Positions 4,926 to 64,000 of a stretch of DNA of 64,000 nt are shown in pieces. The translations under genes and the position numbers were made by a program. Position 1 is the first letter of the stretch, and each line of letters starts with the position of its first letter. Source of the DNA: an uncultured bacterium. Its GTDB lineage: Bacteria; Acidobacteriota; Thermoanaerobaculia; Multivoradales; JAHZIX01. Where the stretch lies: NCBI GenBank assembly GCA_965368975.1, contig CBDUPA010000019.1, forward strand, positions 1 to 64,000, written 5' to 3'. Below the pieces are notes generated by a model. The model had not been told where the DNA came from. It did no database searches and saw nothing but the letters and a program-made list of their open reading frames with translations.

Positions 4926-5702
4926 TCACTCACAACTGCGATACAGCACCACCGCGACCGCCGTCGCCAAGTTCAAACTCGACACCCCCTCCCGCATCGG
5001 AATCGCGACCTTCCGCTCCACCCGCGCCAACATCCCCTCACTCAACCCCCGGCTCTCCGACCCGAACACCAGCACCGTCCCACCCAAATCTGTCCCCCTC
5101 CCCAACGGCTCCCCCTCCGGATGCACCGCCACCAACGGACGTCCCATCCGCGACGGCAATTCCTCGACGCGCACGCACGGTACCGCGAACTGCAAGCCGG
5201 CGCCGCCACGGACTGCCGTCGGATGCCAGGGATCCTGCTTACCAACGACCACGACCCCGCCCGCCGCCGCAGCTGCGGCCACTCGGACCACCGCTCCCAC
5301 GTTGCCCAGATGCGACGGAGTCTCCAAGACCACCACGGGCGCGGCACTCCCCTTCTCATCTCCACCGTTCCCCTCCCCACCATTCCAGAGCGCCTCCGAA
5401 TCCACCGACGGCCGCCGCGCCAGCGAGATCACACCACTCGGCGGTGCGGCTGGGGCCAGGCTCTCGAAGTCTGACGCCGGCATGACCACGGCTCGCCGCT
5501 GCACCTCCGCCACCAGCTCCGGCGCCACGTGCCCGACAATCGCCTCGATCTCGACGTCCGCGCGCACCACAACGTCTTCCACATCTCCACCGAAGCGCAG
5601 GGCATGCTTGAGCGGATGCACACCTTCCAGCACGACGAGCCCGTCATCTCGACGGGCAGCATAGAAACGGGCAGCGAGCGCGGAAGCGGAGAGAGACGTC
5701 AT
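4926..5702 (-). CDS. SpoU/TrmH-family RNA 2'-O-methyltransferase
   Basis: SPOUT motifs VVLETPSHLGNVGAVVR, LVFGSESRGL, IPMREGVSSLNLATA. Start placed at ATG 5702 (MTSLSAS) because the extension to 6062 overlaps the divergent gene. Confidence 0.88.
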   Translation of the reverse strand: MTSLSASALAARFYAARRDDGLVVLEGVHPLKHALRFGGDVEDVVVRADVEIEAIVGHVAPELVAEVQRRAVVMPASDFESLAPAAPPSGVISLARRPSVDSEALWNGGEGNGGDEKGSAAPVVVLETPSHLGNVGAVVRVAAAAAAGGVVVVGKQDPWHPTAVRGGAGLQFAVPCVRVEELPSRMGRPLVAVHPEGEPLGRGTDLGGTVLVFGSESRGLSEGMLARVERKVAIPMREGVSSLNLATAVAVVLYRSCE

Positions 5703-5820
5703 GGTGCAGGCATTCTGCCAGAAGCACGGCGTCGCGGTACAAGCAACTCCGGAGGCCGGGCAACGTATCCTTGGTGAACCCAGCCCAACCGTTCCAACAC
5801 GCAGCCCAGGGAGACACGAC

Positions 5821-6642
5821 ATGTTGCAAGGATTTTCCCGCCGCCGTCTGCTCACCGCTCTACCTGTCCTCAGCGCCGCACCGGCGGTCTTGTGGCGCCA
5901 GGAGACGCAGGCCCAGGAAGGAAGAGAAGAAGCGGCCACGGCTGCGGTGCATGCGAGCTTTCCAGCGCAGGACCCAGACCGGGTGCGCGCGATCGTCGGC
6001 GCTTCACATGGCAACCTGGAGCGGGTGCAAGAACTGATCACGGAGAGTCCGGACCTGGCCAAGGCGGTGTGGGATTGGGGCTATGGTGACTGGGAGACGG
6101 CGCTGGGCGCGGCATCGCACACCGGGCAGCGGGAGATCGCGCAGCTCTTGATGGCGCACGGCGCGCGACCAGATCTGTTCACCTTCGCCATGCTCGGCTA
6201 TCTCGACGTGGTCAAGGCCTACGTCGCGGCACAGCCAGGGATCCAGCGCATCCCGGGGCCGCATGGCTTGACGCTACTGCACCACGCGCGCACCGGCGGT
6301 GAGGCTTCGGAACCCGTGGTGGCGTTCCTGGAAGAGCTCGGAGATGCCGACATGCGCCAGATCTCCGAGCCCATGAGCAACGAGGACAAGGCCTGCTACG
6401 AGGGCAACTACCGCTTCGGACCGGGCGAGGCGAATGTGCTGAAGGTCGAAATCGGCCGAGGTGACCTGCTCGGGATTACGCTGGCGGACGACTTCCCGCG
6501 CACACTTTTCTATGTCGGCGAGCATGCCTTCGAGCCCGCCGGTACGCGTGGCTCGCGGGTGCAGTTCGAGGTGGTGGACGGCAAGGCGGTGAGCTTGACG
6601 GTGTTGGACGGAGCACCGGTGGTGACGGCCAAAAGGTTCTAA
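5821..6642 (+). CDS. Tat-exported ankyrin-repeat-like protein
   Basis: ATG 5821 preceded by GGGAG; twin-arginine signal FSRRRLL followed by a hydrophobic stretch; ankyrin-like motifs ASHGNLERVQELI, ETALGAASHTGQREIAQLLMAHGA, LTLLHHA. Confidence 0.75.
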   Translation: MLQGFSRRRLLTALPVLSAAPAVLWRQETQAQEGREEAATAAVHASFPAQDPDRVRAIVGASHGNLERVQELITESPDLAKAVWDWGYGDWETALGAASHTGQREIAQLLMAHGARPDLFTFAMLGYLDVVKAYVAAQPGIQRIPGPHGLTLLHHARTGGEASEPVVAFLEELGDADMRQISEPMSNEDKACYEGNYRFGPGEANVLKVEIGRGDLLGITLADDFPRTLFYVGEHAFEPAGTRGSRVQFEVVDGKAVSLTVLDGAPVVTAKRF

Positions 6643-6739: not shown

Positions 6740-9700
6740 TCAGGGTTGGCTGGTCGCTTGACTGGCCGCTTGACTGGCCGCCGACACCCAGTTCTGCATG
6801 GCACCGACGCTGCAACCGAACTTGCGGTGGCCATTGCCGAGGCCGAGGGCATCGATGATCTGCTCGCAGGAGCAGCCGGCGGTGTCTTCAGTGGTGAAGC
6901 TGACCTGCGGCCCGACCCCATTAGGGGCGTTGGTGTCGAAGGTCGTGTCGCCGTCGACCAGGGCGAAGCGGTTGACGCCCAAGCCGCTGGTTGGCACGTT
7001 CTCGGGGATCGACGTGCCGGGACACTGATCGTCGGCTTCGGCGATGCCGTCACCGTCGCAGTCGGCGGCCAGGTAGAGGACAAAGCCATCGTGGTCGGAC
7101 GAGCGCAGGGCGCCACCGCCGTTGATCAGGTCGCCATTGATCAGGTCGACCGCCGCATCGGCGTTGCCGCGACCATAGGCGAAGCCGCGCACCCAGGGCT
7201 CGGCTGCGGCCGAGGTGAGGGCGTGGTCGAGCACCTGGGCGGTGCCGCGGAAAATGAACGAGTAGCGGTCCGTGGGATCGAGACTCAGCACCCGGTTGCT
7301 CAGGTTCGGCTCGACGAGATCGGGGCCAGAGAGCAGGTTGTCCGCCGGCACGGCGGTACCCTGGATCTGGCCGATGACGTCGACGTAACCGTCGGTGAAC
7401 TCATAGGCGTTGAAGTCACCCACCACGACCAGCGGCCGCGTCGGATTCGTCGTCTGGTACGACTGCACGATCGTCGCAATGCTCTGCGCCTGTTCGAGAC
7501 GCTTCTGGCGTACGCGCGGACCGTCGGAGGCATCGTCGATGCGACTGAGGGAGCGGTTGTGCACCACCAGCACGGCGACCGGGAAGCCGCCGCCAAGAGC
7601 ACAGGTAGCACGCGCTTCGAGCAGCAGCGGCGGACGATCGTGCAGCAGGCTGTTGTCGAAGGTCAGCAACTCGCTGGCGGCGAACTGCGTCACGGCATCG
7701 ACGGCGACGGTGTCGCGCACCAGGAAGCCGACGTCGATACCGCCGACATCGTTGCCCTCGACCAGATAGGCGCTGTAGCTGACGGCCGGGTCATCGGCCG
7801 CGATCTGCGCCGCCAGATCTTCGAGCACGCCCAGCTTCTCCACTTCCTGCACACCCAGAATGTCCGGGCTGTCCAGAACCTCGCGGATGTAGCTGCTGAA
7901 CTTGGCCAGACGCAAGGCGTACCCGGCGCTCGACACCACCGTCTCGCCGCCGTCGCTGACGTCGTCGAACAGACGGAAGAGGTTGAGCGAACCCACGGTG
8001 AACTCACCTTCGCCACGCGCCGCGACGGCGGTCGGCAGGGTGGCCGGGGTGACGGTAAGTGCTGTCGGCCATAGCTCGTAGCCACCGAACTCGTAGCCGA
8101 GCACGCCGGTAGCGCTGAAGGTCGAACCAGCTGGGATCACCTGGTTGGGCAGGCCCAGCTTGTCGGGGTCGAGTTCGAAGACCTCGGGATTGCCATCCCA
8201 GACAGGCAGGCCAATTTCACCCGGAAACTGAATACCCGGCTCGCGGAAGGCGCGGCCCGGACGGGCAACGATATGCACTTCGGCGATCGGATCGGTGCCG
8301 AAGCGCTGGTTGGGTCCGCTGACGCTGCCAGCGGCGATGTCGATCAGCATGCCTTCGTAGCACTCGTACTCGATGCTGCAGCTGGGCGTAGACGGATCAG
8401 GCGACGGCACGGCGGCGTTGAAGGCAACGGCCGGCGGTATGGTCTCGGCGCCAGTGACCACGACGCTGGAGCCGCCAGTGAACTCGGTGAAGTCGAAAAA
8501 CTCGACCACCGTACCGGTGACGGTCACCTGGTCACCGACGGCGACGGCCGGCGCCGTGCCGGTGAAGACGAAGATGCCGTCCGAGGTATCGACGCTGCCG
8601 TCGCTGCGGGCGCTCGGCGTCTGCACGAAGAAACCATCGGGAGCCAGCGCCGTGACCACGTTGTCGACCGTGCTCACCGTCTGGTCCTCGAACGGCGAGG
8701 TCAGGCCGGTGCCCTGGATCTCGTAGATCTCGCGCTCGGGGCCGAACGGACCGCAGCCATCCGTGGCCGAGGTGTTGGAGCGGCCTGGCGTGATGCAGGC
8801 GTTGCGCAGGTCGACGTTGTTCTGATCCGTATCGGTGCCATCCGGGAAACGGCCGATGCCGCGGAAGTCCTGGCCGCTGGAGCCGGAGTCGAAGAGACCG
8901 TCGCCGCTGCCCTCGGTGTAGGGCGCACCGACCGAGCCTTCGTAGCTGACGGCGTCCAGGATCTCGCCAGCGACCACCAGCGCAACGGCGTCGGGCGCCC
9001 CGTTCTGGATCGACGACAGCACGTCGAGGTCGCATTCGGCGACGGTGGCGACATCGGCACACAGCACGAAGTAGTCGCCGGCCGCCAGCGTCACCGCGGG
9101 CAGCACGAACGAGCTGTAAGCCGCGCCGCCGTTGCCGTTGATCAGCTCGACGGTGACGGTGCTCAGGTCGAGATCGCCATCACCGGTGTTCTTCAGCTCG
9201 ATGAACTCGGCGGTGTCCGAGCCGGGCTGGTCGTAGTCGATCTCGTTGATCACCAGCGCCGGACGAGTCGGCTTGGGGCAATCCGCGTCGGCGGTGGTGT
9301 TGGCCGAGCCCGGGGTGATGCAGCGCAGCGAGAAGTCGGCGCTGTTGTCGTCGGTGTCGTTGCCGTCGGGCAGACGCGACAAGCTCTTGTTCTCGTTCGG
9401 GCCGCCCGTGCCGCCCGAGGAGTTGTCGCTCCCCGCTCCGCTACCTTCCGTGTAGGGCGCGGCGACGGAACCTTCGTAGCTCAGCGCGTCGACGACGGTG
9501 CCGTTCAGCACGATGGCGACCGCGTCCGGTGCGCCATTCTGCACCAGGTTGCTGTCCGGGCTGACATCGAGATCACAGCCGAGGACCTCGTCGCTGTCGC
9601 CGCAGATGACAAAGTAATCGCCGGCCGCCAGCGACACCGCCGGTAGATCGATCGTCTTGTAGACGGAGTCGCCGTTGCCGTTGACCAGCACAACCTGGTA

Positions 9701-10495
9701 GGGGGCGAGGTCGACGGCCTCACTGCCGTTGTTGCGCAGCTCGATGAATTCGGCGAAGTCGGTGCCCGGCTGATCGTAGTCGACCTCGTTGATCACCAGC
9801 TCGGCCAGATCGGTCGGCGGCGGCGGATCGACAGGACCGCAGGCGTTGGCGGCCCCCGGGGTGTCGTCGCCACCGGCGGGATCGAAGGCACCGATCTGCC
9901 AGCCATCAGCTCCGGCGGCGCAGCGGAAGGCATGCGCGGGCACGAAGGAACCGTCGGGACCGACGGTCGTGCCGCAGTAGGTGAAATCGCCTGAGCCCAC
10001 GCTCTCGATCAGCGCCACACAGTCGACCACGGCGCTCCACGGCGTCACGTCGAGCGCGCCGTCGTCGTTGCTGTCCAGGTCATCACCGGAGGTGCCGGTG
10101 AAGCCAGAGACCAGCAGGTGCGTCACGTTATCGCTGTTCTCGAAGTTGAGGTTGACGAACAGGTCCGGCCCCGCCCAGCCAGCAGAGGCGAGCGAGAAGG
10201 TGCCCTCGGCGGCAACAAAGAAGCCGTTGCCGTCCAGGTTCAGGCCCCCCAGGTCGACGGTGCTCTCGATCACGCCGCTGCCGGCGGCACCGTCGCCGAT
10301 CACCACGTAGCTCAACCCGTCGAGCGAGGCACCAGCGGTGCCCGTCAGCTCGAAGTACTCGTCGTTGTCGGTGCTCGGCTGATCGATGCGGATCTCACTC
10401 AGGGAAACTTGCGCGGATACGCACAAGGGCGTCAAGACCAGAACGCTCAGGAGCGCCAAGAGCGACCCCCTGCATAGAGTTTTCATGATCGACAC
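6740..10495 (-). CDS. Secreted ExeM/NucH-like extracellular nuclease: signal peptide, three lamin-tail-like domains, OB-fold, EEP domain, Cys-rich tail (1251 aa)
   Basis: Signal peptide; three repeats of the type INEVDYDQPGTD.AEFIEL; IYEIQG..GFFVQ..DGIFVF..VGDQVTVTGTV OB-fold; EEP motifs GSLNL, GVQEVE, VVGDFN, LDH, SDHD; SD AGGAGA 5 nt before GTG 10495. Confidence 0.88.
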   Translation of the reverse strand: MSIMKTLCRGSLLALLSVLVLTPLCVSAQVSLSEIRIDQPSTDNDEYFELTGTAGASLDGLSYVVIGDGAAGSGVIESTVDLGGLNLDGNGFFVAAEGTFSLASAGWAGPDLFVNLNFENSDNVTHLLVSGFTGTSGDDLDSNDDGALDVTPWSAVVDCVALIESVGSGDFTYCGTTVGPDGSFVPAHAFRCAAGADGWQIGAFDPAGGDDTPGAANACGPVDPPPPTDLAELVINEVDYDQPGTDFAEFIELRNNGSEAVDLAPYQVVLVNGNGDSVYKTIDLPAVSLAAGDYFVICGDSDEVLGCDLDVSPDSNLVQNGAPDAVAIVLNGTVVDALSYEGSVAAPYTEGSGAGSDNSSGGTGGPNENKSLSRLPDGNDTDDNSADFSLRCITPGSANTTADADCPKPTRPALVINEIDYDQPGSDTAEFIELKNTGDGDLDLSTVTVELINGNGGAAYSSFVLPAVTLAAGDYFVLCADVATVAECDLDVLSSIQNGAPDAVALVVAGEILDAVSYEGSVGAPYTEGSGDGLFDSGSSGQDFRGIGRFPDGTDTDQNNVDLRNACITPGRSNTSATDGCGPFGPEREIYEIQGTGLTSPFEDQTVSTVDNVVTALAPDGFFVQTPSARSDGSVDTSDGIFVFTGTAPAVAVGDQVTVTGTVVEFFDFTEFTGGSSVVVTGAETIPPAVAFNAAVPSPDPSTPSCSIEYECYEGMLIDIAAGSVSGPNQRFGTDPIAEVHIVARPGRAFREPGIQFPGEIGLPVWDGNPEVFELDPDKLGLPNQVIPAGSTFSATGVLGYEFGGYELWPTALTVTPATLPTAVAARGEGEFTVGSLNLFRLFDDVSDGGETVVSSAGYALRLAKFSSYIREVLDSPDILGVQEVEKLGVLEDLAAQIAADDPAVSYSAYLVEGNDVGGIDVGFLVRDTVAVDAVTQFAASELLTFDNSLLHDRPPLLLEARATCALGGGFPVAVLVVHNRSLSRIDDASDGPRVRQKRLEQAQSIATIVQSYQTTNPTRPLVVVGDFNAYEFTDGYVDVIGQIQGTAVPADNLLSGPDLVEPNLSNRVLSLDPTDRYSFIFRGTAQVLDHALTSAAAEPWVRGFAYGRGNADAAVDLINGDLINGGGALRSSDHDGFVLYLAADCDGDGIAEADDQCPGTSIPENVPTSGLGVNRFALVDGDTTFDTNAPNGVGPQVSFTTEDTAGCSCEQIIDALGLGNGHRKFGCSVGAMQNWVSAASQAASQATSQP

Positions 10496-10728: not shown

Positions 10729-11877
10729 TCAGCCCAGCGTGGTGCGCGCGATCACTTCGGCATCGGCGCGGGTGATCGGTACCGGGTTGAGGCCGAGGTG
10801 GAACTCGTCCTGCATCACGTAGTCGACCAGGGCCCCGAGGTCGTCATCCTTGACGCCCAGATCGCGCAGGGTCGGCGTCTTGGCTTCCTCGACCAGATCA
10901 CGCACGGCCTGGATGCCCTCGCGCGCCAGCTGCTCGGTGCCTTGACCGGTGTCGGCCACCCCCATCGCCTTGGCGATGGCGGCGTAGCGCTCGGGCACGG
11001 TGCTCAGGTTGTAGTCCATGACGTCGGCCAGGAAGATCGCGCAGGCGACGCCATGGTGCACCTTGTGCAGCACGTTGACGCCGTGCGCGAAGGCGTGCTC
11101 GCCGCTGCCGCCGCCCTTCATCGAGATACCGGCGGTGAGCGCGGCGACCATCAGCCAGCCGCGTGCCTCCCGGTCACTCGGGTCGTTGACCGCGCGCATC
11201 AGCCACTTCTTCACCAGCTCGATGGCGTACAGAGCGTAGGCATCGGCTAGCGGCTGATTCTCCACCGAGACGTAGGCACCGACGGCATGCGACAACGCGT
11301 CGAGACCGGTGGCGGCGGTGACGTGCACCGGCAGGCTGAAGGTGAGCTCGGGGTCGCACAGGGCAACATGACCGGGCACCGCAACGATGTGCATCTTGAA
11401 CTGGCGGTCGGTGTCGATGATGATCGTGCCACCGACCACCTCACTACCGGTGCCGGCAGTGGTCGGGATGAACATCAGCGGGTCGTGCGGCTCGGTGACC
11501 AACTTGGCACCGTCCTCGTAGTCACGAATGTGGCCGCCACCTGTCACCACCGCGGCGGCACTCTTGGCGACGTCCATCGGGCTGCCACCACCGAGACCGA
11601 TCATGCCGTCGCAGTTGGCCGCCTTGTAGGCTTCGGCGGCTGCCATCACCATGATGTCGTCGGGGTTGGTGGCGACGTCGGTGAACAGGGTGGTTTCGAG
11701 GCCGGCTTCCTTGAGCGACTCGAGCACCGGATCGCAGACGCCGGCGTCGAGTACACCCTTGTCGGTGACCACCAACGGCCGCTTGCAGCCGAGTTTCTTC
11801 ATCTCGGGACCGGCGAGGCGCGCGGCCCCGTCGCCGTAGTGCAGGGCGGGAACAAGGTGGAAGAAGTTGAGGTTCAT
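10729..11877 (-). CDS. Iron-containing (type III) alcohol dehydrogenase
   Basis: Motifs GLGGGSPMDVAK, IPTTAGTGSE, metal ligands DALSH, EHAFAH, VHHG; SD GGAGGAG. Confidence 0.92.
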   Translation of the reverse strand: MNLNFFHLVPALHYGDGAARLAGPEMKKLGCKRPLVVTDKGVLDAGVCDPVLESLKEAGLETTLFTDVATNPDDIMVMAAAEAYKAANCDGMIGLGGGSPMDVAKSAAAVVTGGGHIRDYEDGAKLVTEPHDPLMFIPTTAGTGSEVVGGTIIIDTDRQFKMHIVAVPGHVALCDPELTFSLPVHVTAATGLDALSHAVGAYVSVENQPLADAYALYAIELVKKWLMRAVNDPSDREARGWLMVAALTAGISMKGGGSGEHAFAHGVNVLHKVHHGVACAIFLADVMDYNLSTVPERYAAIAKAMGVADTGQGTEQLAREGIQAVRDLVEEAKTPTLRDLGVKDDDLGALVDYVMQDEFHLGLNPVPITRADAEVIARTTLG

Positions 11878-12101: not shown

Positions 12102-12620
12102 CTAGTCGACTGTCAGTAGCGGTAGCGTAGCGACGGGCTTACGGGCGTCAAAGGTCAGCGACACTTGCATCTCTCCAAGACGCAGCAGCACGGTATTCAC
12201 CTGCCGTGGCTCGTAGTCGAAGAGAACGCGGTTCTCGAGGCTCCATCGCAGCTTCGGATCGATCACGACCTCGAAGTAGAGCCAGGCGGCACGATGTGAG
12301 ACCTCTTTACCCAGCCACTGCAGCGCCGGCGAGGATGCCTGGTCGGTGAGTAGACGGAAGGTCTCGTTCAGGTAGGCAACGATGAGCTCATCGACCTTGT
12401 CTGTCGCGTCCAGGTTGACCGGCTTGCCCGCCCTCTCGGACAGCACTGCTTCCAACTCCTCGGGCAACACGCGCAACGCTATCTCCAAGCTGCGTCGCTC
12501 CGGGTTGTACTCGGCCTCGGCCAGACTGGCATGGTAGGGATGCGCCGCTACAGCCCCAGGCAGCAGAATGGGCAGCAGCAGTACTAGGCGAACCAGCCAG
12601 CCGACCGTGCATCGACTCAC
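12102..12620 (-). CDS. Exported DUF6702-like protein, typical partner of M1 peptidases
   Basis: Signal peptide followed by HPYHASLAEAEYN; W.G.E, WLYFE and Q.N motifs; 4-bp overlap with the peptidase stop. Confidence 0.7.
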   Translation of the reverse strand: MSRCTVGWLVRLVLLLPILLPGAVAAHPYHASLAEAEYNPERRSLEIALRVLPEELEAVLSERAGKPVNLDATDKVDELIVAYLNETFRLLTDQASSPALQWLGKEVSHRAAWLYFEVVIDPKLRWSLENRVLFDYEPRQVNTVLLRLGEMQVSLTFDARKPVATLPLLTVD

Positions 12621-15010
12621 TCTTCCCCACCCCCTCGAGCGTCGGGATCTTGGCGCACCATCGGGTTCGGCGGCTCCTTGGCCTTGAACAACTGGAAGCG
12701 ACTGCGCGCCGGCTCAGGCGGGTACACATTGTCGCCACGCTCCGCGTCGCCCAACTGCAAGTACGGATCGAGTTCGACCTTGACGATGTCCTGATCACTG
12801 ATGAAGAGCTTGGAAACGCGCTCGGCGTTGGTACGCCAGATTTCTGCCGGCAGCGTCATTGACTCGACGCTGCCGTCTTCGTAGGTCACGCGCAACGGCA
12901 GTGGCATGGGCAAGCCACCTATGTTCTCGAAGTCGACGACGATGAGCTTCTTGTTCATCGCCAACACTTCCTTATCGCGACCGTCGAGGCTGTCCAGATA
13001 CGCTTGGTGCTGCGCGTAGTCCCAGGGCGTAACGGCAAACTCGTCATACTCGTTGTAGAAGTCCGCCAAGGCCGGATAGCGATCGAGACGGCGCTCCATG
13101 CCCTCGTTGCGCTGCTCGCTCAGCGTCACCGGGCCTTCGGCTTCCTCCCGACGCGCCCGAGCCTTCTCCACCTCCGGATCGCGCGTGTCGAGGTCATAGC
13201 GGGTGATGCCGGTGACCGCGATGTCGACGTGGTGCGTGCCGTAGAACCAACCGCGCCAGAACCAGTCGAGGTCGACACCGGAGGCGTCTTCCATGGTGCG
13301 GAAGAAATCCGCCGGTGTTGGCCGCTTGAAGCGCCAGCGGCGAGCGTATTCGCGGAAGGCGAAGTCGAAGAGTTCGCGACCGAGGACCGTCTCGCGCAGC
13401 ACGTTGAGTGCGGTCGCCGGCAGCGCGTAGGCGTTGTTGCCAAACTGCAGCAGCGACTCGGAGTTGGTCATGATCGGCACCCGGCGGTCACTGATCATGT
13501 ACGAGACCATCTCCTGTGGTTCCCCTCGACGCGACGGATAGTCCTCTTCCCAAGCCTGCTCAGCGAGGAACTGCAGGAACGAGTTGAGCCCCTCGTCCAT
13601 CCACGTCCACTGCCGTTCGTCCGAGTTGACGATCATCGGGAAGTAGTTGTGCCCGACCTCGTGAATAATCACCGAGATCAAACCGTACTTACTGCGCTCC
13701 CAGGTGCGATCATCTCGACTCTGGCGGGCGTCCCAATAGGTGCCGTCCGGGTAAGGACGCGGCTTGTTGAAGGTGATCATCGGGTATTCCATGCCGCCAA
13801 TTGGACCGTTGACCGAGATGGAAACGGGGTACGGATACTCGAAGGTGAAGCTCGAATAGGTCTCGAGCGTGTGGATGATGGCATGCGTCGAGTAGCTGCT
13901 CCACAGTGGTTCCGCCTCGTTGGGGTAGAACGACATGGCCATCACCCGGCCCTCGTCGTCAGCCAGCTCCGCAGCCTGTGAGCGATGGCCCATGGCGTCC
14001 CAGATGAACCTGCGCGACGAGGCGAAGGCGAAGTCTCGGACATTGTCGGCCTGAAAGACCCAGGTCTTGGTCCCGGTGGCAGGCGTCTCCTGGTTTCGCT
14101 TCGCTTCCTCCGGCGTCACCACAAAGACTGGTGAGTCTGCGTCGACTGCCTCTTCCAGACGCTGGCGCTGTGCCTCGGTGAGGACCTCGTCGACATTCTG
14201 TAACACGCCGGTAGCAGCCACGATGTGATCGTCCGGCACCGTGATCTCAACCCGGTAATCGCCCAGCTCGAGCGTGAACTCACCACGGCCGAGAAACTGC
14301 TTGTGCTGCCAACCCTGGTAGTCCGTGTAAGCCACCATGCGCGGGTACCACTGCGAGATCTCGTAGATGTAGTTGCCATCCGCCTCGAAGTACTCGTAGC
14401 CGCCACGCGCACGGGCACGCACGGCGTCAATGACGTTGTGCTGCCAGTCGATGTGCAATTCGAATGCCTCTCCTGGAGCCAGAGGTCTCGGCAGATCCAC
14501 GCGCATCATGGTCTTGACGATGGTGTGCTTCAGGGAGCTACCTTGCCCATCATCAACACGCGTGATCTCGAAGCCACCCTCGAAGTCCGAGCGCTCCAAG
14601 TACTCCCCCAGCTTGCGATAGCTCAGCTTGTCGAAGTTCGGCGCCGTCAGCGTGAGCATCTCGTCCGAATCGCGGCGGAAGCGATTCTGGTCGAGTTGCA
14701 ACCACAGGTAGCGGAGCACGTGCGGTGAACGGTTATGGTACGTGATCGTTCCCGAGCCGACGATGCGCTGGTTCTGATCGTCCAGTTCGACCTGGATCTG
14801 GTAGTCGGCGCGCTGCTGCCAGTAGCCCGGTCCGGGTGCCCCGGAAGCGGTGCGATCAGCGCCGGGCGTCGGTAGCAGGTAGTCGAGCTGCGCGAAGGCA
14901 TCGGCACCGGTACCTTCGCCGGGTTCGTTCTCGGCGGCGTGAGCTGCACTCAGCGGGAAGATAAGAACGAGCAGGCAAGCGAGCGCAAACCGGCGACGAA
15001 GCTGGAACAT
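12617..15010 (-). CDS. Secreted M1-family zinc aminopeptidase
   Basis: GGMEYP motif, HEVGH followed by WMDEG (HExxH-x18-E), N-terminal PGYWQQRADY; signal peptide; SD GGAGGAG before ATG 15010 (ORF track starts at 15067). Confidence 0.92.
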   Translation of the reverse strand: MFQLRRRFALACLLVLIFPLSAAHAAENEPGEGTGADAFAQLDYLLPTPGADRTASGAPGPGYWQQRADYQIQVELDDQNQRIVGSGTITYHNRSPHVLRYLWLQLDQNRFRRDSDEMLTLTAPNFDKLSYRKLGEYLERSDFEGGFEITRVDDGQGSSLKHTIVKTMMRVDLPRPLAPGEAFELHIDWQHNVIDAVRARARGGYEYFEADGNYIYEISQWYPRMVAYTDYQGWQHKQFLGRGEFTLELGDYRVEITVPDDHIVAATGVLQNVDEVLTEAQRQRLEEAVDADSPVFVVTPEEAKRNQETPATGTKTWVFQADNVRDFAFASSRRFIWDAMGHRSQAAELADDEGRVMAMSFYPNEAEPLWSSYSTHAIIHTLETYSSFTFEYPYPVSISVNGPIGGMEYPMITFNKPRPYPDGTYWDARQSRDDRTWERSKYGLISVIIHEVGHNYFPMIVNSDERQWTWMDEGLNSFLQFLAEQAWEEDYPSRRGEPQEMVSYMISDRRVPIMTNSESLLQFGNNAYALPATALNVLRETVLGRELFDFAFREYARRWRFKRPTPADFFRTMEDASGVDLDWFWRGWFYGTHHVDIAVTGITRYDLDTRDPEVEKARARREEAEGPVTLSEQRNEGMERRLDRYPALADFYNEYDEFAVTPWDYAQHQAYLDSLDGRDKEVLAMNKKLIVVDFENIGGLPMPLPLRVTYEDGSVESMTLPAEIWRTNAERVSKLFISDQDIVKVELDPYLQLGDAERGDNVYPPEPARSRFQLFKAKEPPNPMVRQDPDARGGGEE

Positions 15011-15080
15011 GGGGTCTCCTCCAGGGGTCGAATCCGAAATCAGAACCGGCAGCAGAAGGGAAAGCAACTACAACCGTCGG

Positions 15081-15110
15081 AGATTACCAGCTCTCGACTC
15101 ACTGTGCCAA
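15081..15110 (-). promoter_or_regulatory. Putative sigma70 promoter of the M1 peptidase operon
   Basis: Minus strand TTGGCA-18 nt-TAATCT with extended TG (TGgTAATCT). Confidence 0.5.
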
Positions 15111-15156
15111 CGCCAAATCCCGTGCCCACCCAGCGATAGGGAGATCCCGCGGCGAT

Positions 15157-16164
15157 CTATAGCAACGCCAGGTCCGCGAGTAAGTCTTCTTCGCCGGTCG
15201 CTTCGGCACCGGCCGCGAAAGCCTCGACAAACTGAACCGCTGGGTCTTTCTGCTCGTCGAAGAGGGCCGCGGCCTTCAGCTCTGCCTCCAGCGTCTCTCG
15301 CATCGAGACCAGCAAGGGATCGACGAATTGCCGGGACATCAGGCAATAGGGCTCCTCGGCTCGCCGGTACTCCAGCAGTATGCAGAGCGCATCCGCCAGG
15401 TCCTGCCGATGGAGTTCGTTCCCAGGTGCCGCACGCAAGCGCTTGAAGAACTTGATGGCTGACTTGCCGTGGCCCAGTAGCTTCAACCGCCGTTCGCCGC
15501 GCACCGAGACCAGGCCAGATCGTCGCAGCCCATAGACTTCGATCGACTGCTTGGCCATCGCCTGCTGGAACGGTCCCGCCTCCGGATGCGGCCTGACGAC
15601 GCCTTGCTTCGTGAACTCCAATACCTGTGCAGGGTCGTCGCGGCAGGGATGTAGGAGCAGCGGCCGTTCTTGCGCCTCGGCATCCGGCTTCTCGGCTCGC
15701 TTCCCTTCTTCGTGCAATGGGAACAAGTTCTGCTTACCCAGGGACGCCTCTTCCCCATCCTCGAAGCGCTGCGTGCGCCTGCGGTTGCAGTCGATGCAGG
15801 AAGGCAGCAAGTTGTCCCAATCCGCCGCGAGCCACCAGTACCCGGGTTGCTTCAAGAGCTTCTTGCCCCCCTCTTCGACGACATAACCACCTTTGGGCCG
15901 GTAGTGCTCGACATCCATCGGCTGGGTCGCCTCGTAGGTGCTCTCGCAATAGGCACACTTGCCATGGAACAATTCGTTCAGGCGATCTTTGATCTCGAGG
16001 TCGCGGTAGACCTCGAAGTCATAGTTCTTGAACTTGCCATCTTTCTTGAACTTCGCCGGATCAGCATAGAAGGCTGCAGCTTTCTGGCGCTCCTGTTCAC
16101 CCTTCGAATCGACACCATCGAGGACGGCAGGAACGGCAACCCGAGTACGATCGACCTGAATCAC
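15157..16164 (-). CDS. HNH endonuclease, Septu PtuB / retron-effector-like
   Basis: FHGKCAYCE, DVEHYRPK, YWWLA.DW.NLLPSCIDCN, K.N.FP, PLLLHPC.DDP; SD GGGAGAGG before GTG; 10 bp downstream of the ATPase gene. Confidence 0.88.
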   Translation of the reverse strand: MIQVDRTRVAVPAVLDGVDSKGEQERQKAAAFYADPAKFKKDGKFKNYDFEVYRDLEIKDRLNELFHGKCAYCESTYEATQPMDVEHYRPKGGYVVEEGGKKLLKQPGYWWLAADWDNLLPSCIDCNRRRTQRFEDGEEASLGKQNLFPLHEEGKRAEKPDAEAQERPLLLHPCRDDPAQVLEFTKQGVVRPHPEAGPFQQAMAKQSIEVYGLRRSGLVSVRGERRLKLLGHGKSAIKFFKRLRAAPGNELHRQDLADALCILLEYRRAEEPYCLMSRQFVDPLLVSMRETLEAELKAAALFDEQKDPAVQFVEAFAAGAEATGEEDLLADLALL

Positions 16165-16174
16165 CCACCTCTCC

Positions 16175-18583
16175 CTAGGTCACATCCAGGATCCGTTGCA
16201 GCTGGCGATCCAGCGCCAGCTTGGGATCCTCGATCTCATCGACACCCAGCGCGGCAGCTTCCCGCGCCAGGTACAGGTCGATCGCCGTCAACATCAGCCG
16301 TTCCCGGCGCGTCTGGCCGAGCAGATGGAAGCTGCGCAAGTCCCGTTGCAGGTCACGCAGGCGCTCGCTCTGCTCATCACTGCGCTGGTCGAGCGCCAGC
16401 AACTCGTAATACTCCTCCAGCAAACGCGCCGACTCGGGATCTTGCGTGCTCGACATCCCAAAATGCTCGGACGTCAACAACTGGTCGACGCGCAGCGCCT
16501 TCACCGGCGGCAGGTCTCGTACCTGCACGATCTGCTGCCGGCTATTGCGACGCAGCACCACAACGTCCCCGTCTTCCAGCCCACGCAAGCACAGCGGATC
16601 GTGCGTCGTGGCGAGAAATTGCACCGCCGGGAAGGCCTTGCGTAGGCTAGAGACGATCTGCATCTTCCACTTCGGATGCAGGTGCGAGCCGAGCTCGTCG
16701 AGCAGCACGATACCTTCAGCGACCGCCATGTCCGACCAGCGATCGAGCAAGATGGACATCACCTCCGCGGTCAACGCCACCACCGTCTGGTACCCATCGC
16801 TGAGCTGTGTCAACGACACCTCAGTGCCGAAGAGCTGAACGTCGATGCGCTCCTCGGCATGGTTCTGACGCAGATCGTCCTCGTCACCCAGGTTGAGCAA
16901 CGCCTTGAACGATGGCTTGAGGTTGTCGAACTCGGCCGCCTCCAACCCAAGCAACCAGCGCTGGGCGTCTTCGAGTGGCTGGAAGGGATCAAAGAGATTG
17001 TGTGCGCGGGCAAAGTCGGTACCGTAGGATCCGTCCGCTTGGTGCGGCGACGCACGCGGGCGCGGCAGCAAGCGGGTGGCGCCGTAGGCGAGCAGCAGAA
17101 CTTTGGGTTCTTGGGCGCCTTCGAAGGCTTCGCTGTCCTGGTGGAAGTCGAGCTGGATTGGCTCGTTCATGCCGGAGAGAAACACGCGCACGAAGCCGAT
17201 GCCGTCACTGCCCCGGCGCACGAAGTCGCGGGCGTCGAGGTCGAGCGATTCACGGTAGCGTCGCCCCACCAGCGCCAAGGCCACCGCTTGCAGTACCGAC
17301 GACTTGCCCGCCCCGTTCTCCCCCAGTAGCACCGTCCACGGCCCTTCGCGTCGCGGCAGCTCGATGTCCAGATGTTCGATGCCGCGGAAGTTGTGCAGCA
17401 CGACGCGCTCGACGGTGCGGCTGCGCTCGTAATAGCTCTCCTTCGCGCCGGGCGCCGTTTCGCCCGACTTCTGGTCGAGCGAGTAGCTCTGCTGCACCGC
17501 CTGGGCGACCGAGAAGTCCTCAGCGATCTTGGCTTGCTCGTCCAAGGGCACAAAGCGGGTGTGCGCGAAGATGTCAGGTTCTTCCTCGCCGTCGAGGTAG
17601 ACAGGCCCTCGGTCCACCGGAGCCTCGAAACTCACGGGCGGACCTCCGAGGCCACGCCGCCGGTCGTCGCGCTCTCCGGAGGCGTGCTCTCCGGAGAGGC
17701 TCTCTTCGAAAGTCCTGCGGCTGGGTTCTCCCCGTTTGGGGCCTCCACGGCCAGGTCCCAGGTGTTTAGGGCCTCCGCGGCTGGGGCCTCGCGTCGGTCG
17801 TCGGGGACTCCTGCCAGGTATCCCCAACTCATCGAGACTCGCTTCTTCCGAGAAGCGGCGCACCACCTGCCGGCACATTCCGGCAAATTCAGCCCTGTCA
17901 CTCAGCATCGGCTCGATCCGAGACCACAACCGCGGAGCCTCGGACGGCGGCAGACTCGCAAGCACCTCCAACCAACGGTTCAGCCGCACCGAAACTTCGC
18001 GCCGCGCATCTCGCAGCGGCTCTCGATTGAGGTCGAACAACTCGATCGTGATGCGGCCGGGCTCGGTGTCGCTGGTCACCAAGCCATCGTCGGTATAGAC
18101 CAGGTGCTCTTCCGGGTTGTCAACTTGCGCGCACGGATCGAGCAGCAGGGGCCGCTCTTCGTCCAGGGCCTTGCCGGTGGCCTCCGGCTCGCAACGAGAA
18201 CCCCTGATGGGAAAGCGGTTGCGCTTGGTGGAATTGCAGACCTGGCAAGCCAGGTAGAGGTTGGACCACTCCCCGCTCAACCACCAGTAGTGGAGTGGAA
18301 AGTGCTCACCGTGGAGGTTTACGGTGTTCTGCCTGGGCCGGAAGAGCTCGATGCTCTCTGATGGCAGCACCAGGATCGACTCACAGAAAGCACACTTTCC
18401 ATGGAAGAGTTCGCGCAGGGCCTGCTTGACCTCCGGGTGTCGGTAGGCGCTGAATTGGAACCGCTCCTGACCTGAACTGCCGGCTTCCGTCTGGAAGAAC
18501 TCGCGAGCACGTTCGCGCTCGCGAGACCAGATGTCCTCGAGCTCAGGAGGCGCCGCGACGCGGTTGCGGTTGACGTGAATCAT
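16175..18583 (-). CDS. Fusion of a degenerate HNH domain with an ABC-type ATPase (Septu PtuA-like)
   Basis: N-terminal FHGKCAFCE..IELFRPR..NLYLACQVCN; C-terminal Walker A GENGAGKS, signature LSDGYQ, Walker B VLLDE, D-loop HLHP, H-switch TTHDP. Start at ATG 18583 (MIHV aligns with MIQV of the HNH); alternative GTG 18610. Confidence 0.88.
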   Translation of the reverse strand: MIHVNRNRVAAPPELEDIWSRERERAREFFQTEAGSSGQERFQFSAYRHPEVKQALRELFHGKCAFCESILVLPSESIELFRPRQNTVNLHGEHFPLHYWWLSGEWSNLYLACQVCNSTKRNRFPIRGSRCEPEATGKALDEERPLLLDPCAQVDNPEEHLVYTDDGLVTSDTEPGRITIELFDLNREPLRDARREVSVRLNRWLEVLASLPPSEAPRLWSRIEPMLSDRAEFAGMCRQVVRRFSEEASLDELGIPGRSPRRPTRGPSRGGPKHLGPGRGGPKRGEPSRRTFEESLSGEHASGERDDRRRGLGGPPVSFEAPVDRGPVYLDGEEEPDIFAHTRFVPLDEQAKIAEDFSVAQAVQQSYSLDQKSGETAPGAKESYYERSRTVERVVLHNFRGIEHLDIELPRREGPWTVLLGENGAGKSSVLQAVALALVGRRYRESLDLDARDFVRRGSDGIGFVRVFLSGMNEPIQLDFHQDSEAFEGAQEPKVLLLAYGATRLLPRPRASPHQADGSYGTDFARAHNLFDPFQPLEDAQRWLLGLEAAEFDNLKPSFKALLNLGDEDDLRQNHAEERIDVQLFGTEVSLTQLSDGYQTVVALTAEVMSILLDRWSDMAVAEGIVLLDELGSHLHPKWKMQIVSSLRKAFPAVQFLATTHDPLCLRGLEDGDVVVLRRNSRQQIVQVRDLPPVKALRVDQLLTSEHFGMSSTQDPESARLLEEYYELLALDQRSDEQSERLRDLQRDLRSFHLLGQTRRERLMLTAIDLYLAREAAALGVDEIEDPKLALDRQLQRILDVT

Positions 18584-18698
18584 GGAGAATCCAGACCCGG
18601 CCAGACTCACTCTGGATGCAAGATACAGAACTCACTTCGATAAGCTGACCTTGAGACGTAGCTTACCAGACACCCAACTTTCCACCCCGCCGCACGGC

Positions 18699-19427
18699 TC
18701 AGTACCCCGCTGGACGCAACCTCCCCCCCATCAGGAAGTCGAGCAGCGTCAGACCGTCGTAGACCGGCAGCCGCAGCTCGTTGCGCACAGCCTGGCTGCA
18801 CGGCGGCAGTAGGGTGCACTCGCAGATGAAAGCGCCGACGTCGTCGTGGGCATCGAGGATCTTCTGGGCGGCACCGATCAAGTCCGCGGCCATGGCGGCT
18901 TCTCGTTCCGGTGTCAGTTCCTTGGTACGCAGGAATTCCAGCCACGACTCGCACTCGCCGATGCCCTCGACGGTGATCGGGATGTCGTTCTCGCTCCAGC
19001 CGCATTCCTGGTAGTGCCATTCGCCTAGATCGGGAGCAAAGAAAGTCAGGATACCGATGCGCTTGTCGGGCATCAGGCGGTGCAGGGTGGGTACCCACAG
19101 CAAGGGCGACATGGCCACCGGCACGTTGACGGCGTTGGACATGGCGCGCTGCAAGTGGATCATGCGGCCGTTGCAGTTCTCGGTGATGGCGATGGCGCCC
19201 TCGGCTTCGAGCTGCTTGGCAGCGGCAACGTAGTCGGCTTCCATGGCCATGGCGGCTTCCTGGCTGCCGGGGCCGGTGGCGCCTTTGACGGTGCGGTGGA
19301 CCACCGGATAGGGGAAGCTGAGCGGCGTGGCGATGGCGCCAGGGATCTTAGCCATGTTGCCATCGAGCAAGAGGATACCGAGGAAAGGCTCGCGCCCTTC
19401 CCCGGCTCCCGAAGTGCCTGTACCCAT
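18699..19427 (-). CDS. Asp/Glu racemase-superfamily protein, copy 2
   Basis: LGILLL..IPG..FPYPV; Cys pair ITENCNG and ICECTLLPP; LPVYD; clear paralog of 19431..20183, 3 bp downstream of it. Confidence 0.8.
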   Translation of the reverse strand: MGTGTSGAGEGREPFLGILLLDGNMAKIPGAIATPLSFPYPVVHRTVKGATGPGSQEAAMAMEADYVAAAKQLEAEGAIAITENCNGRMIHLQRAMSNAVNVPVAMSPLLWVPTLHRLMPDKRIGILTFFAPDLGEWHYQECGWSENDIPITVEGIGECESWLEFLRTKELTPEREAAMAADLIGAAQKILDAHDDVGAFICECTLLPPCSQAVRNELRLPVYDGLTLLDFLMGGRLRPAGY

Positions 19428-19430
19428 GGA

Positions 19431-20183
19431 TCAGGCTCCGACGGCGGCCAGCTGCGGTGCAACACCGCGGCCGAGGTCGGCGGGACGGTAGTAGCCGCTC
19501 ATGGTCAGGTCGAGCAGCGTCAGGATGTCGTAGACCGGCATGCGGACGGCCTCCCGCACGGCGGGTAGGCAGGTCGGCAGCATGGTGCACTCGGAGACGA
19601 AGCAGCCGATGTCCGGGTTCTCATCCAGCAGCCGCTTGGCGGAAGCAATCAGGTCAGCTTCGAGCTGTGGCCGCAAGGTATCGGGAATCTCCTTGGTCGC
19701 CAAGAACTCGAGCCAGGACTCACACTCACCGATACCTCCGAGAGCGATTGGGATTTCCTTCTCGCTCCAGCCCGAGGCGTTGTAGTTGCGCTCGCTGACG
19801 GCGTGCGTGTGGAAGGTGAGAATACCGATGCGCTTGTCGGGCATCATGCGGTGCAGCGACGGTACCAGCAGCAAACCAGAGGTGACGATCGGTACCTTGA
19901 CGGCAGCGGACAGCTCCTTGTGCAGCAGCGCGATCAGCCCGCAGTTGGCGGTCATGGCGCCGACGCCCTTGGCTTCGAGTTGCTTCGCGGCGTCGAGGTA
20001 GAGCGGCAGCATGTTCCAGGCGTCATCGGCGTAGGTCGGGGTCTTGGATCCCTTCACCGTGTGTCGAATGACCGGGTACGGCCAGGTATCGGGGCAGGCC
20101 ATGCAGCCGGGTTCGACGGACATCTTGCCTTCCAGCATCAGGATGCCCAGCGGCGGACGGTCGGTAGCGGTGATCGCGGTCAT
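19431..20183 (-). CDS. Asp/Glu racemase-superfamily protein, copy 1
   Basis: LGILML..PG..TWPYPV; Cys pair MTANCG and VSECTMLP; MPVYD; SD GAGGAG; 76 bp after the NRPS stop. Confidence 0.82.
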   Translation of the reverse strand: MTAITATDRPPLGILMLEGKMSVEPGCMACPDTWPYPVIRHTVKGSKTPTYADDAWNMLPLYLDAAKQLEAKGVGAMTANCGLIALLHKELSAAVKVPIVTSGLLLVPSLHRMMPDKRIGILTFHTHAVSERNYNASGWSEKEIPIALGGIGECESWLEFLATKEIPDTLRPQLEADLIASAKRLLDENPDIGCFVSECTMLPTCLPAVREAVRMPVYDILTLLDLTMSGYYRPADLGRGVAPQLAAVGA

Positions 20184-20259
20184 CGGTAGTTCTCCTCAAT
20201 TGAAGGTAGGTTCAACACAAGGTATTCATCTTCTCATGACTCGGTGAGTCTGTCCCTGC

Positions 20260-59090: not shown

Positions 59091-59091
<1 letters not shown>
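20260..59091 (-). CDS. Giant NRPS, 12,943 aa, 11 modules: C-A-T, C-A-T-E, then nine C-A-T; no TE or R domain
   Basis: 11 C domains with HHxxxDG, 11 A domains with (Y/F)TSGSTG and the terminal catalytic Lys, 11 carrier motifs near 55695, 52370 (GGDS), 47495, 44135, 40730, 37290, 34020, 30665, 27275, 23815, 20455; one E domain followed by a DCL-type C (YPLAPAQQGMLFH). Confidence 0.97.
30495..30550. repeat. 15-nt in-frame tandem repeat (QQRVAQQTVSQQTVSQQT) in the T8-C9 linker
   Basis: Unit ccgtctgctgtgaga, two perfect plus two degenerate copies. Confidence 0.85.
50750..52210 (-). other. Epimerization domain of NRPS module 2 (approximate bounds)
   Basis: Motifs LTPAQRWFF, HHLVVDGVTW, EGHGRD, RTAGWFTALYP, FNYLGQ, TPSDFPL; preceded by a GGDSI carrier. 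Confidence 0.92.
57973..58038. repeat. 15-nt in-frame tandem repeat, ~4.4 copies (GANEDGANEDGAGEDGAGEDS)
   Basis: Unit ggcaccgtcttca(cc/tt) within NRPS C1. Confidence 0.9.

Positions 59092-64000
<4,909 letters not shown>

Follow-up and report, generated by a model that had tools for sequence, protein, structure and literature searches.

The Locus

The window considered here is a stretch of 64,000 nucleotides (nt), positions 1 to 64,000 of contig C19 (CBDUPA010000019.1), from an uncultured bacterium of the Thermoanaerobaculia (Acidobacteriota) whose genome comprises 7.1 Mb in 59 contigs. Within it lie two adjacent genes, racA and racB, whose products resemble the aspartate/glutamate/hydantoin racemases and which directly follow N5, a very large gene for a nonribosomal peptide synthetase (NRPS) (Table 1). 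A preliminary description, made from the sequence alone, had reported two diverged paralogs 3 bp apart and 76 bp behind the synthetase, each with both candidate catalytic cysteines. This twin-gene observation is confirmed, and its coordinates are exact. RacA and RacB share 120 identities over 228 positions (53%; BLASTP E 3e-82), a likeness far beyond chance. A consensus scan found no terminator-like site on the minus strand of the spacer between N5 and racA, and promoter and terminator scans, together with an RNA fold of the region 3' of racB, were uninformative (z-score -0.6).

Table 1. Positions of racA, racB and the neighboring features in the window
Feature	Position	Strand	Remarks
racA	19431-20183	minus	250 aa; A-type; TANCG ... 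SECTM; PRK07475-like branch of the Asp/Glu/hydantoin racemase superfamily (predicted); ATG at 20183, GAGGAG 7 nt 5' of it; stop 19433-19431
racB	18699-19427	minus	242 aa; B-type paralog; TENCNG (one-residue insertion) ... CECTL; ATG at 19427, 3 nt beyond the racA stop
Spacer from N5 stop to racA	20184-20259	minus	76 nt; carries GAGGAG before ATG
N5	20260-59091	minus	NRPS, 12,943 aa, 11 C-A-T modules; last gene of the FAAL-NRPS-PKS line N3-N4-N5; stop TGA 20262-20260
N4, C-terminal part	59091-63998	minus	Two-module NRPS; full gene C19:59091-66134; stop overlaps N5 start
FeADH1	10729-11877	minus	Fe-alcohol dehydrogenase; cassette member, directly 3' of rac in related loci
Inserted block between racB and FeADH1	12102-18610	minus	Not seen in related cassettes
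Fused PtuB-like/PtuA-like gene	16175-18610	minus	Part of the inserted block; 811 aa
PtuB-like HNH gene	15157-16164	minus	Part of the inserted block; 335 aa
M1 peptidase gene	12617-15067	minus	Part of the inserted block
DUF6702 gene	12102-12620	minus	Part of the inserted block
Ser/Thr protein kinase-TPR gene	222-2528	plus	768 aa
Ser/Thr protein kinase-TPR gene	2584-4890	plus	768 aa
SpoU-type methylase gene	4926-6062
Lamin-tail and endonuclease/exonuclease/phosphatase gene	6740-10495	minus	1,251 aa

N5 belongs to an assembly line that combines NRPS and polyketide synthase (PKS) modules. N3 (13,272 aa) contributes a FAAL-type AMP-binding domain, the condensation (C), adenylation (A) and thiolation (T) domains of a C-A-T and a C-C-A-T unit, a KS-AT-ACP module, and more modules besides. 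N5 terminates ∼66 residues past the serine of its last T domain and has no thioesterase (TE), as the preliminary description had stated. The genome holds 11 matches to the thioesterase family PF00975, and the sole one on the window's contig is in the other synthetase, N2. The same description had N5 free of epimerization (E) domains; motif scans reveal one, after module 2, while the acid-type modules themselves have none.

Which modules are acid-type was judged from specificity codes taken by alignment to motif anchors. The codes of A1 (DATKVGHVGK) and A4 (DLTKVGEVGK) we take to be Asx-like and that of A6 and A8 (DAKDLGVVDK) Glu-like; A11 (DIFHFGLILK), which the preliminary description had grouped with A1, A6 and A8, is presumably not acid-like. 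The code DAKDLGVVDK is found also at A2 of the synthetase N1, at A4 of N2, and in a stand-alone A-T-C protein. When 42 C and E domains are placed in a tree, those C domains that come after A1, A4, A6 and A8 join the large LCL clade and stay separate from the clade whose members have an E domain before them; the LCL type assigned to them before is upheld. The tree shows one further oddity: a C domain of N3 (near residue 9459, outside the window; motif HHAIIDG) has no E domain before it and is sister to the post-E (DCL) clade. It comes after a T domain with LGGDSI, behind a Ser-like module, and may be a dual E/C domain.

Family, Fold and Cysteine Dyad

Both proteins have a single Pfam match, PF01177, at 22.0 bits for RacA (E 1.5e-4) and 23.4 bits for RacB (E 5.6e-5), both E-values being significant. 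In NCBIfam, scanned at E up to 10, they match only PRK07475 (NF005679, "hypothetical protein"; 175.8 and 174.6 bits) and CuyB, and the cysteate-racemase match of RacA is faint. At the same limit neither matches the aspartate racemase model TIGR00035 (asp_race), for which a homolog from Lentzea reaches only E 0.072. By these profile scores, RacA and RacB are a sister branch of the PRK07475 subfamily and not members of it. ESM Atlas returned "Asp/Glu racemase family" clusters only, and PF00975 is not among the Pfam matches of RacA or RacB; likewise, the PF00975 set of the genome does not include them.

The fold is clearer than the sequence. An AlphaFold (AF2) model built from a 26-sequence alignment (pLDDT 90.8, pTM 0.84) gave 204 Foldseek matches in the PDB at E ≤ 0.001. 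The matches listed include hydantoin, glutamate and aspartate racemases, arylmalonate and malonate decarboxylases, and one hypothetical protein. The top ones are the hydantoin racemase 2eq5 (E 4e-9, TM 0.62/0.70), MurI, the aspartate racemase 1jfl and arylmalonate decarboxylase, all at no more than 19% identity. The RacA model thus displays two pseudo-symmetric alpha/beta domains with the predicted active site between them. In this respect it is like the Asp/Glu/hydantoin racemase superfamily at large (2EQ5, 1JFL, MurI, arylmalonate decarboxylase, maleate isomerase; Foldseek probability 1.00, TM 0.55-0.70). When RacA alone is compared with the PDB by sequence, 2eq5 is the only match (E 0.04).

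A profile search aligned C81 of RacA to the first catalytic position of 2eq5, of 1jfl, and of the Gly74Cys mutant of arylmalonate decarboxylase, whose structures 3ixm and 3ixl are among the matches. The second cysteine, C199, sits in the xCT motif of the superfamily and was located by the ECT motif and the internal repeat only. Both N80-C81-G82 and E198-C199-T200 are invariant in the 26-sequence alignment. In a larger set, the two window proteins plus 119 matches, NC(N)G is kept in 120 of 121 proteins and EC[TS] in all 121. The earlier assignment to this superfamily, with both candidate catalytic cysteines kept, therefore stands.

The differences from the solved members are considerable too. 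Besides the low identity, and scores under the Pfam and NCBIfam cut-offs, the rac family has its own N-terminal segment (LGILMLEGKM..PGCM) and a TKE motif, and its genes form a conserved A/B tandem pair. Because the fold matches and the dyad is conserved, RacA and RacB are best placed, as judged from alignment and model, within the racemase superfamily as a divergent two-Cys branch that is still uncharacterised. The presence of two cysteines would point to a two-base epimerase or isomerase and speak against a decarboxylase.

A Conserved Cassette

What accompanies these genes elsewhere? The cassette proteins of this genome were mapped onto 59 related loci, 19 from reference genomes and 40 from metagenomes (any loci common to both sets are still included twice). 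The gene directly 5' of the first rac gene is TKC1 in 43 of the 46 loci that could be assessed, a gene for a leucyl-tRNA synthetase (LeuRS)-editing-like protein in one, something else or nothing in two, and an NRPS in none. Directly 3' of the last rac gene stands an Fe-alcohol dehydrogenase (Fe-ADH) gene in 38 of 40 assessable loci. The full order reads AMP-ligase, ADOP permease, aldehyde dehydrogenase, M24 hydrolase, DegT aminotransferase, TKN, TKC1, racA, (racB), FeADH1, TKC2, FeADH2. Here TKC denotes a gene for the C-terminal subunit of transketolase, an enzyme that is split in the cassette.

The hosts are Thermoanaerobaculia, metagenome-assembled genomes (MAGs) of other Acidobacteriota, one MAG of the Geminicoccaceae (an alphaproteobacterium), Lentzea and other Actinomycetota. 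Among 60 relatives of this genome, the rac pair occurs in one, G036, which belongs to the same taxonomic order. In G036 and in G062 the cassette begins within ∼20 nt of an NRPS stop. In their last ∼270-300 residues these synthetases have GWSxG and, with it, motifs of the GNHETLLQEP or GDHYTLLQEP type, and this part can be aligned to the end of N2 that holds its TE; in a third locus, L001, the end of the upstream NRPS matches PF00975 at 131.8 bits. In all three, rac lies ∼10 kb from an NRPS having its own TE or TE-like domain. Every Thermoanaerobaculia locus whose upstream sequence is long enough to tell (3 of 3) has such an NRPS directly 5' of the cassette.

Other hosts offer variations. In loci of the Lentzea type there are also genes for a C-T and an A-T protein, a type-II TE, an M20 peptidase, a LeuRS-editing-like protein, a P450 and an MFS transporter, and the locus L014 has a C-A-T gene. 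The Geminicoccaceae genome, whose completeness is not given, has the cassette and 0 matches to PF00668, the family of C domains. The cassette is, then, usually NRPS-associated, although the NRPSs are not orthologous, and among the loci examined it stands at a T-domain NRPS end in this genome only. The preliminary description had asked whether such pairs track with TE-less NRPSs, and had suggested that the twin enzymes might release the chain through a cysteine. The first idea fails on the three TE- or TE-like-ended neighbors and on the genome with no C domain; the second finds no support in the genes 5' of rac.

A free-standing LeuRS editing (CP1)-domain protein is a recurrent companion in or beside the cassette. 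It is encoded on contig C29 of this genome (locus L021, 7166-8908, minus), in L011 (1920-2987, plus), in L079 and in L091, where it is directly 5' of rac; besides this genome, Lentzea and two metagenome loci have it. It may give self-protection against an amino-acid analogue, or serve a tRNA-linked step.

Farther away, rac relatives change company. In the alphaproteobacterial class of G063, 46 of 301 genomes have a distant rac family member at E ≤ 1e-10, several with tandem pairs, and M24 paralogs adjoin in 5 of the 12 loci fetched. Other neighbors are M20 peptidase, DAO-type FAD oxidoreductases, class-III aminotransferase and EamA transporters. The distant members at L052-L054, L061 and L062 (27-38% identity) are also in tandem, often by 1-4 M24 (creatinase/DoeA-like) paralogs. 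Because distant rac pairs adjoin M24 paralogs, the rac-M24 link seems older than the transketolase cassette. By analogy, this company of enzymes acting on free amino-acid derivatives resembles the logic of hydantoin racemases and their hydrolases, and that of EutA with DoeA. The preliminary description had named closest homologs in catabolic, NRPS-unlinked operons as the outcome that would speak against it. Close homologs are not so placed; the more distant alphaproteobacterial relatives stand in catabolic-looking loci.

No published account of such a cassette was found in the literature; the gene tables in the supplements of DADH papers might list a comparable gene.

The Cassette Split by an Assembly Line

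In this genome the cassette is in pieces. On the minus strand, the order 5' of N5 is TKC2, DegT aminotransferase, TKN, TKC1, N3, N4, so that one group of cassette genes stands directly before N3 and racA-racB directly after N5. Further 5' of TKC2 are a plus-strand FGE-like gene and another assembly line, N1-N2, which closes with a TE. The trio N3-N4-N5, 86 kb long, separates TKC1 from racA. Since TKC1-rac adjacency spans three phyla, parsimony makes the contiguous cassette the ancestral state, and the rac pair stands 76 bp after a T-terminated NRPS because the trio lies in between. The GC content at third codon positions is alike (0.81-0.87) in rac, the cassette genes and the NRPSs; there is therefore no compositional sign of a recent transfer of the NRPS block, and composition does not date the event.

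The other half of the cassette lies on contig C29: AMP-ligase, aldehyde dehydrogenase, M24, FeADH2, the LeuRS-editing-like gene and two ADOP permeases, and then the NRPS N0. The cassette proteins of this genome are 60-75% identical to those of L001, the ADOP permeases 46-47%. N0 leaves the start of C29 just past its A3 motif, and N1 enters the end of C19, on the same strand, 33 residues before its A5 motif. Because both contigs break within an A domain on the same strand, the start of C29 and the end of C19 probably abut, which makes a region of ∼185 kb. In this arrangement, we infer, cassette genes alternate with two co-oriented assembly lines. A continuation of N5 into the other line by way of N0 was considered and ruled out: N0 opens a line of its own, because a T domain and a starter-type C domain stand at its start.

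The stand-alone A-T-C protein with the Glu-like code is encoded directly 5' of the AMP-ligase here, and other loci have no conserved copy. Its code and its position by the AMP-ligase would fit a Glu-derived pathway. The whole inferred supercluster, with its outer parts beyond the window (C29:1-37820 and C19:106044-148153), would read A(Glu-like)-T-C, AMP-ligase, aldehyde dehydrogenase, M24, FeADH2, LeuRS-editing-like, two ADOP permeases, N0+N1, N2 (TE), plus-strand FGE-like, TKC2, DegT, TKN, TKC1, N3, N4, N5, racA and racB, with ∼40 modules.

Two Paralogs, One Complex?

The tree of the family shows a single ancient A/B duplication. B is marked by the NCNG insertion, single actinobacterial rac genes nest inside the A clade, and the invariant catalytic and polar residues (T, N-C, S, K-E, E-C-T, R, D, D, R) are common to both clades. 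Across the 59 related loci, a tandem pair is present in 20 and a single gene in 28; 10 could not be judged, and one had no usable rac match. The "pair" of L100 may be one frameshifted gene.

A predicted complex of RacA with RacB scored 0.94, while the best of three controls scored 0.00. This mark is attained by 58 of 80 solved complexes and by 2 of 110 mismatched pairs, counts that hold only roughly here, because the RacA-RacB prediction used alignments built for this analysis. Contact agreement between runs was at least 89%, and the pLDDT of the partner at least 90. The predicted model supports binding of the two paralogs. The heterodimer proposed in the preliminary description thus gains from the ancient split and from the complex, and it stands as a model only.

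Likeness to the DADH Pathway

The chemistry of the cassette is suggested by its aminotransferase. The best PDB matches of this protein are 8GYH, 8GYI and 8GYJ (E 4.9e-107, 362 bits, over residues 1-425 of 444); next come SerTA at 225 bits and the perosamine synthases at 216 bits. According to PMC11726168, 8GYJ is Fic25, the enzyme of ficellomycin biosynthesis that makes DADH, a non-proteinogenic amino acid, from ADOH, which a transketolase has produced. In azinomycin biosynthesis, as PMC9570651 has it, the split transketolase AziC5/C6 adds two carbons to N-acetyl-Glu-5-semialdehyde, and amination comes next.

The cassette has the same combination. PF00456 and PF02779/PF02780 lie on adjacent genes, a two-subunit transketolase by the aminotransferase, and this is conserved in the loci examined. 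For azinomycin, ficellomycin and vazabitide, DADH is made with a split transketolase (AziC5/C6) and a sugar-type aminotransferase (Fic25/Vzb9); in the cassette, too, a split transketolase is found by an aminotransferase, here of the DegT family and closest to Fic25 among solved proteins, and the likeness to AziC5/C6 is one of gene content. Unlike that pathway, the cassette shows no N-acetyl-Glu kinase or ArgC-type reductase among its annotated genes and, in three of three genomes, no carrier protein AmCP (LysW). It adds an AMP-ligase, an aldehyde dehydrogenase, an M24 hydrolase, two Fe-ADHs, a second transketolase C subunit and rac.

The M24 hydrolase brings in another parallel. Its best PDB match is the ectoine hydrolase DoeA (6twk, E 4e-61), and it scores 337 bits with NF038259, whose cut-off is 575. 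In the catabolism of ectoine and hydroxyectoine, the DoeA/EutD M24 hydrolase has a racemase-like partner, EutA, so that in both systems a DoeA-type hydrolase co-occurs with a racemase-fold protein. The parallel has its limits: the cassette M24 is below the DoeA cut-offs, and a transketolase, an aminotransferase and NRPSs are also present. As to EutA itself, NCBIfam gave only PRK07475 and CuyB for RacA and RacB, and it is unconfirmed that the library contains an EutA model.

Proposed Role and Its Alternatives

The fold, the dyad, the synteny and the resemblance of the aminotransferase to Fic25 are observed; from them we infer that RacA and RacB are probably a heteromeric, pyridoxal phosphate-independent two-Cys epimerase or racemase, whose target would be a free small amino-acid compound formed along a DADH-like pathway or at its end. 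The best reading of the substrate, by analogy with that pathway, would be an acidic or diamino-acid compound. The sequence of events may be pictured by the same analogy and from the gene content. The AMP-ligase and the aldehyde dehydrogenase would reduce an acid to the aldehyde, the split transketolase would lengthen it by two carbons, and the Fic25-like aminotransferase would aminate the resulting ketone. The Fe-ADHs would adjust the oxidation state of the new hydroxymethyl group, the M24 hydrolase might remove a protecting group or open a ring, and RacA/RacB would set the stereochemistry of an intermediate. The product would probably be used by the neighboring NRPS lines, or in a small peptide. 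More speculatively, a diamino-diacid product would have two alpha centers, one for each rac paralog. The proposal made at the outset, that the twin enzymes supply non-proteinogenic monomers, is supported broadly in this way because the pair sits in a cassette of transketolase and Fic25-like aminotransferase; the simple supply of D-Asp or D-Glu is weakened.

Several observations weigh against this explanation. Neither protein reaches the 31-bit gathering threshold of PF01177 or the curated cut-off of 231 bits of PRK07475, and the epimerase role predicted for the PRK07475-like branch has no characterised member behind it. The score of the predicted complex was obtained with no homodimer among the comparisons and may reflect the likeness of the two proteins only, because solved homodimers exist in the superfamily; in the 28 loci with a single rac gene, moreover, a homomer must suffice. 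AmCP (LysW; TIGR01206) was found in none of three genomes (G000, G036, G062) in a search whose controls responded. The DADH literature, as far as it is accessible, features no racemase, and the word is absent from PMC11726168. The synthetases next to the cassette in G036 and G062 have no orthologs among the N proteins, being 36-44% identical to every one of them. No A-domain code ties the cassette product to a module; in relatives, the codes of the cassette-adjacent NRPSs are mostly of hydrophobic types (DAW-IGTVLK), and no unusual code is common to them. Finally, the line N3-N5 has no release domain, which leaves a slight chance of a recruited role here.

If the explanation is correct, the PRK07475-like racemases would have their first assigned function, transketolase/aminotransferase amino-acid biosynthesis would gain a new stereochemical step, and attention would be drawn to a probable supercluster, 185 kb long and with ∼40 modules, in a Thermoanaerobaculia-related genome. 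The cassette itself, in soil Acidobacteriota and actinomycetes, is widespread and uncharacterised, and it looks like a version of the DADH route that makes chain-extended amino acids without a carrier protein. The conserved two-Cys racemase-fold enzyme, often duplicated into A and B, is a fixed component of it. A testable idea about a cassette thereby takes the place of the unsupported one that a racemase fold releases the NRPS product.

The alternative that survives best, though an unlikely one, keeps RacA and RacB in the cassette and gives the same fold another chemistry: a cis-trans isomerization by way of a covalent Cys adduct, like that of maleate isomerase, a decarboxylation, or the racemization of a cyclic substrate before it is opened by M24, as hydantoin racemase works with hydantoinase. 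Several homologs are automatically named "maleate cis-trans isomerase", the closest folds include those of arylmalonate decarboxylase and hydantoin racemase, and rac co-occurs with DoeA-like M24 both in the cassette and in the distant alphaproteobacterial loci. Against this, both Cys positions are kept, whereas arylmalonate decarboxylase has a single Cys, and no sequence match to a characterised member tells the options apart.

There is a slim chance that RacA and RacB are classical monomer racemases, making free D-Asp, D-Glu or a related acid for the adjacent A domains. The model would be McyF of microcystin biosynthesis, a member of the same superfamily with NRPS genes nearby. The fold and the two-Cys dyad would suit this role, as would the presumed Asx-like codes of N5 A1 and A4 and Glu-like codes of N5 A6 and A8, N1 A2, N2 A4 and the A-T-C protein, with no E domain in those modules. 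The C domains that follow A1, A4, A6 and A8, however, cluster as LCL, away from the post-E clade, and TIGR00035 is unmatched. In contrast to McyF, too, the constant partners of rac across phyla are a transketolase subunit and an Fe-ADH, whether the NRPSs beside them are non-orthologous or missing.

It is improbable that the cassette is a bystander, an independent and possibly catabolic small-molecule pathway that shares an island with NRPSs. The Geminicoccaceae genome, with its cassette and no C domain, would be explained, as would the catabolic-looking company of the distant rac relatives (M24 and M20 hydrolases, DAO-type oxidoreductases, class-III aminotransferase, transporters); transketolase and transaminase reactions are, besides, reversible. 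Such independence does not agree with the TE- or TE-like-ended NRPSs directly 5' of all three Thermoanaerobaculia cassettes, with the C-T, A-T and type-II TE genes of Lentzea-type loci and the C-A-T gene of L014, or with the way in which cassette genes here flank two assembly lines on one strand. The aminotransferase, moreover, is closest to a biosynthetic enzyme.

Least probable is that, once the NRPS trio was inserted, a RacA/RacB heteromer was recruited to the ∼23-module lipopeptide bound to T11, epimerizing its C-terminal residue or releasing it through a Cys thioester: this would provide a TE-less megasynthetase with thioesterase-independent offloading, and it accords with the T-domain end of N5, the nearest TE being in N2, and with a racA that begins 76 nt downstream on the same strand with no terminator-like site between, but none of the 46 assessable related loci has an NRPS directly 5' of rac, the NRPSs that accompany the cassette in relatives, ∼10 kb 5' of rac, end in TE or TE-like domains, one cassette-bearing genome has no C domain, and the racemase fold is unlike any known release enzyme, with no precedent in this superfamily to our knowledge.

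Other Features of the Window

In this genome FeADH1 is 6.8 kb from the rac pair, beyond the inserted block. The block begins, directly after racB, with a Septu-like defence pair (15157-18610, minus). Its first member is a fusion with a PtuB-like HNH region at residues 56-217 and a PtuA-like ATPase at 400-753, and a separate PtuB-like gene comes after it; every score of the pair is under the NCBIfam cut-offs. At the other end of the window, the two kinase-TPR genes stand in tandem and have near-identical Pfam profiles. The SpoU-type methylase gene adjoins the gene for the 1,251-aa protein, which combines lamin-tail and endonuclease/exonuclease/phosphatase domains.

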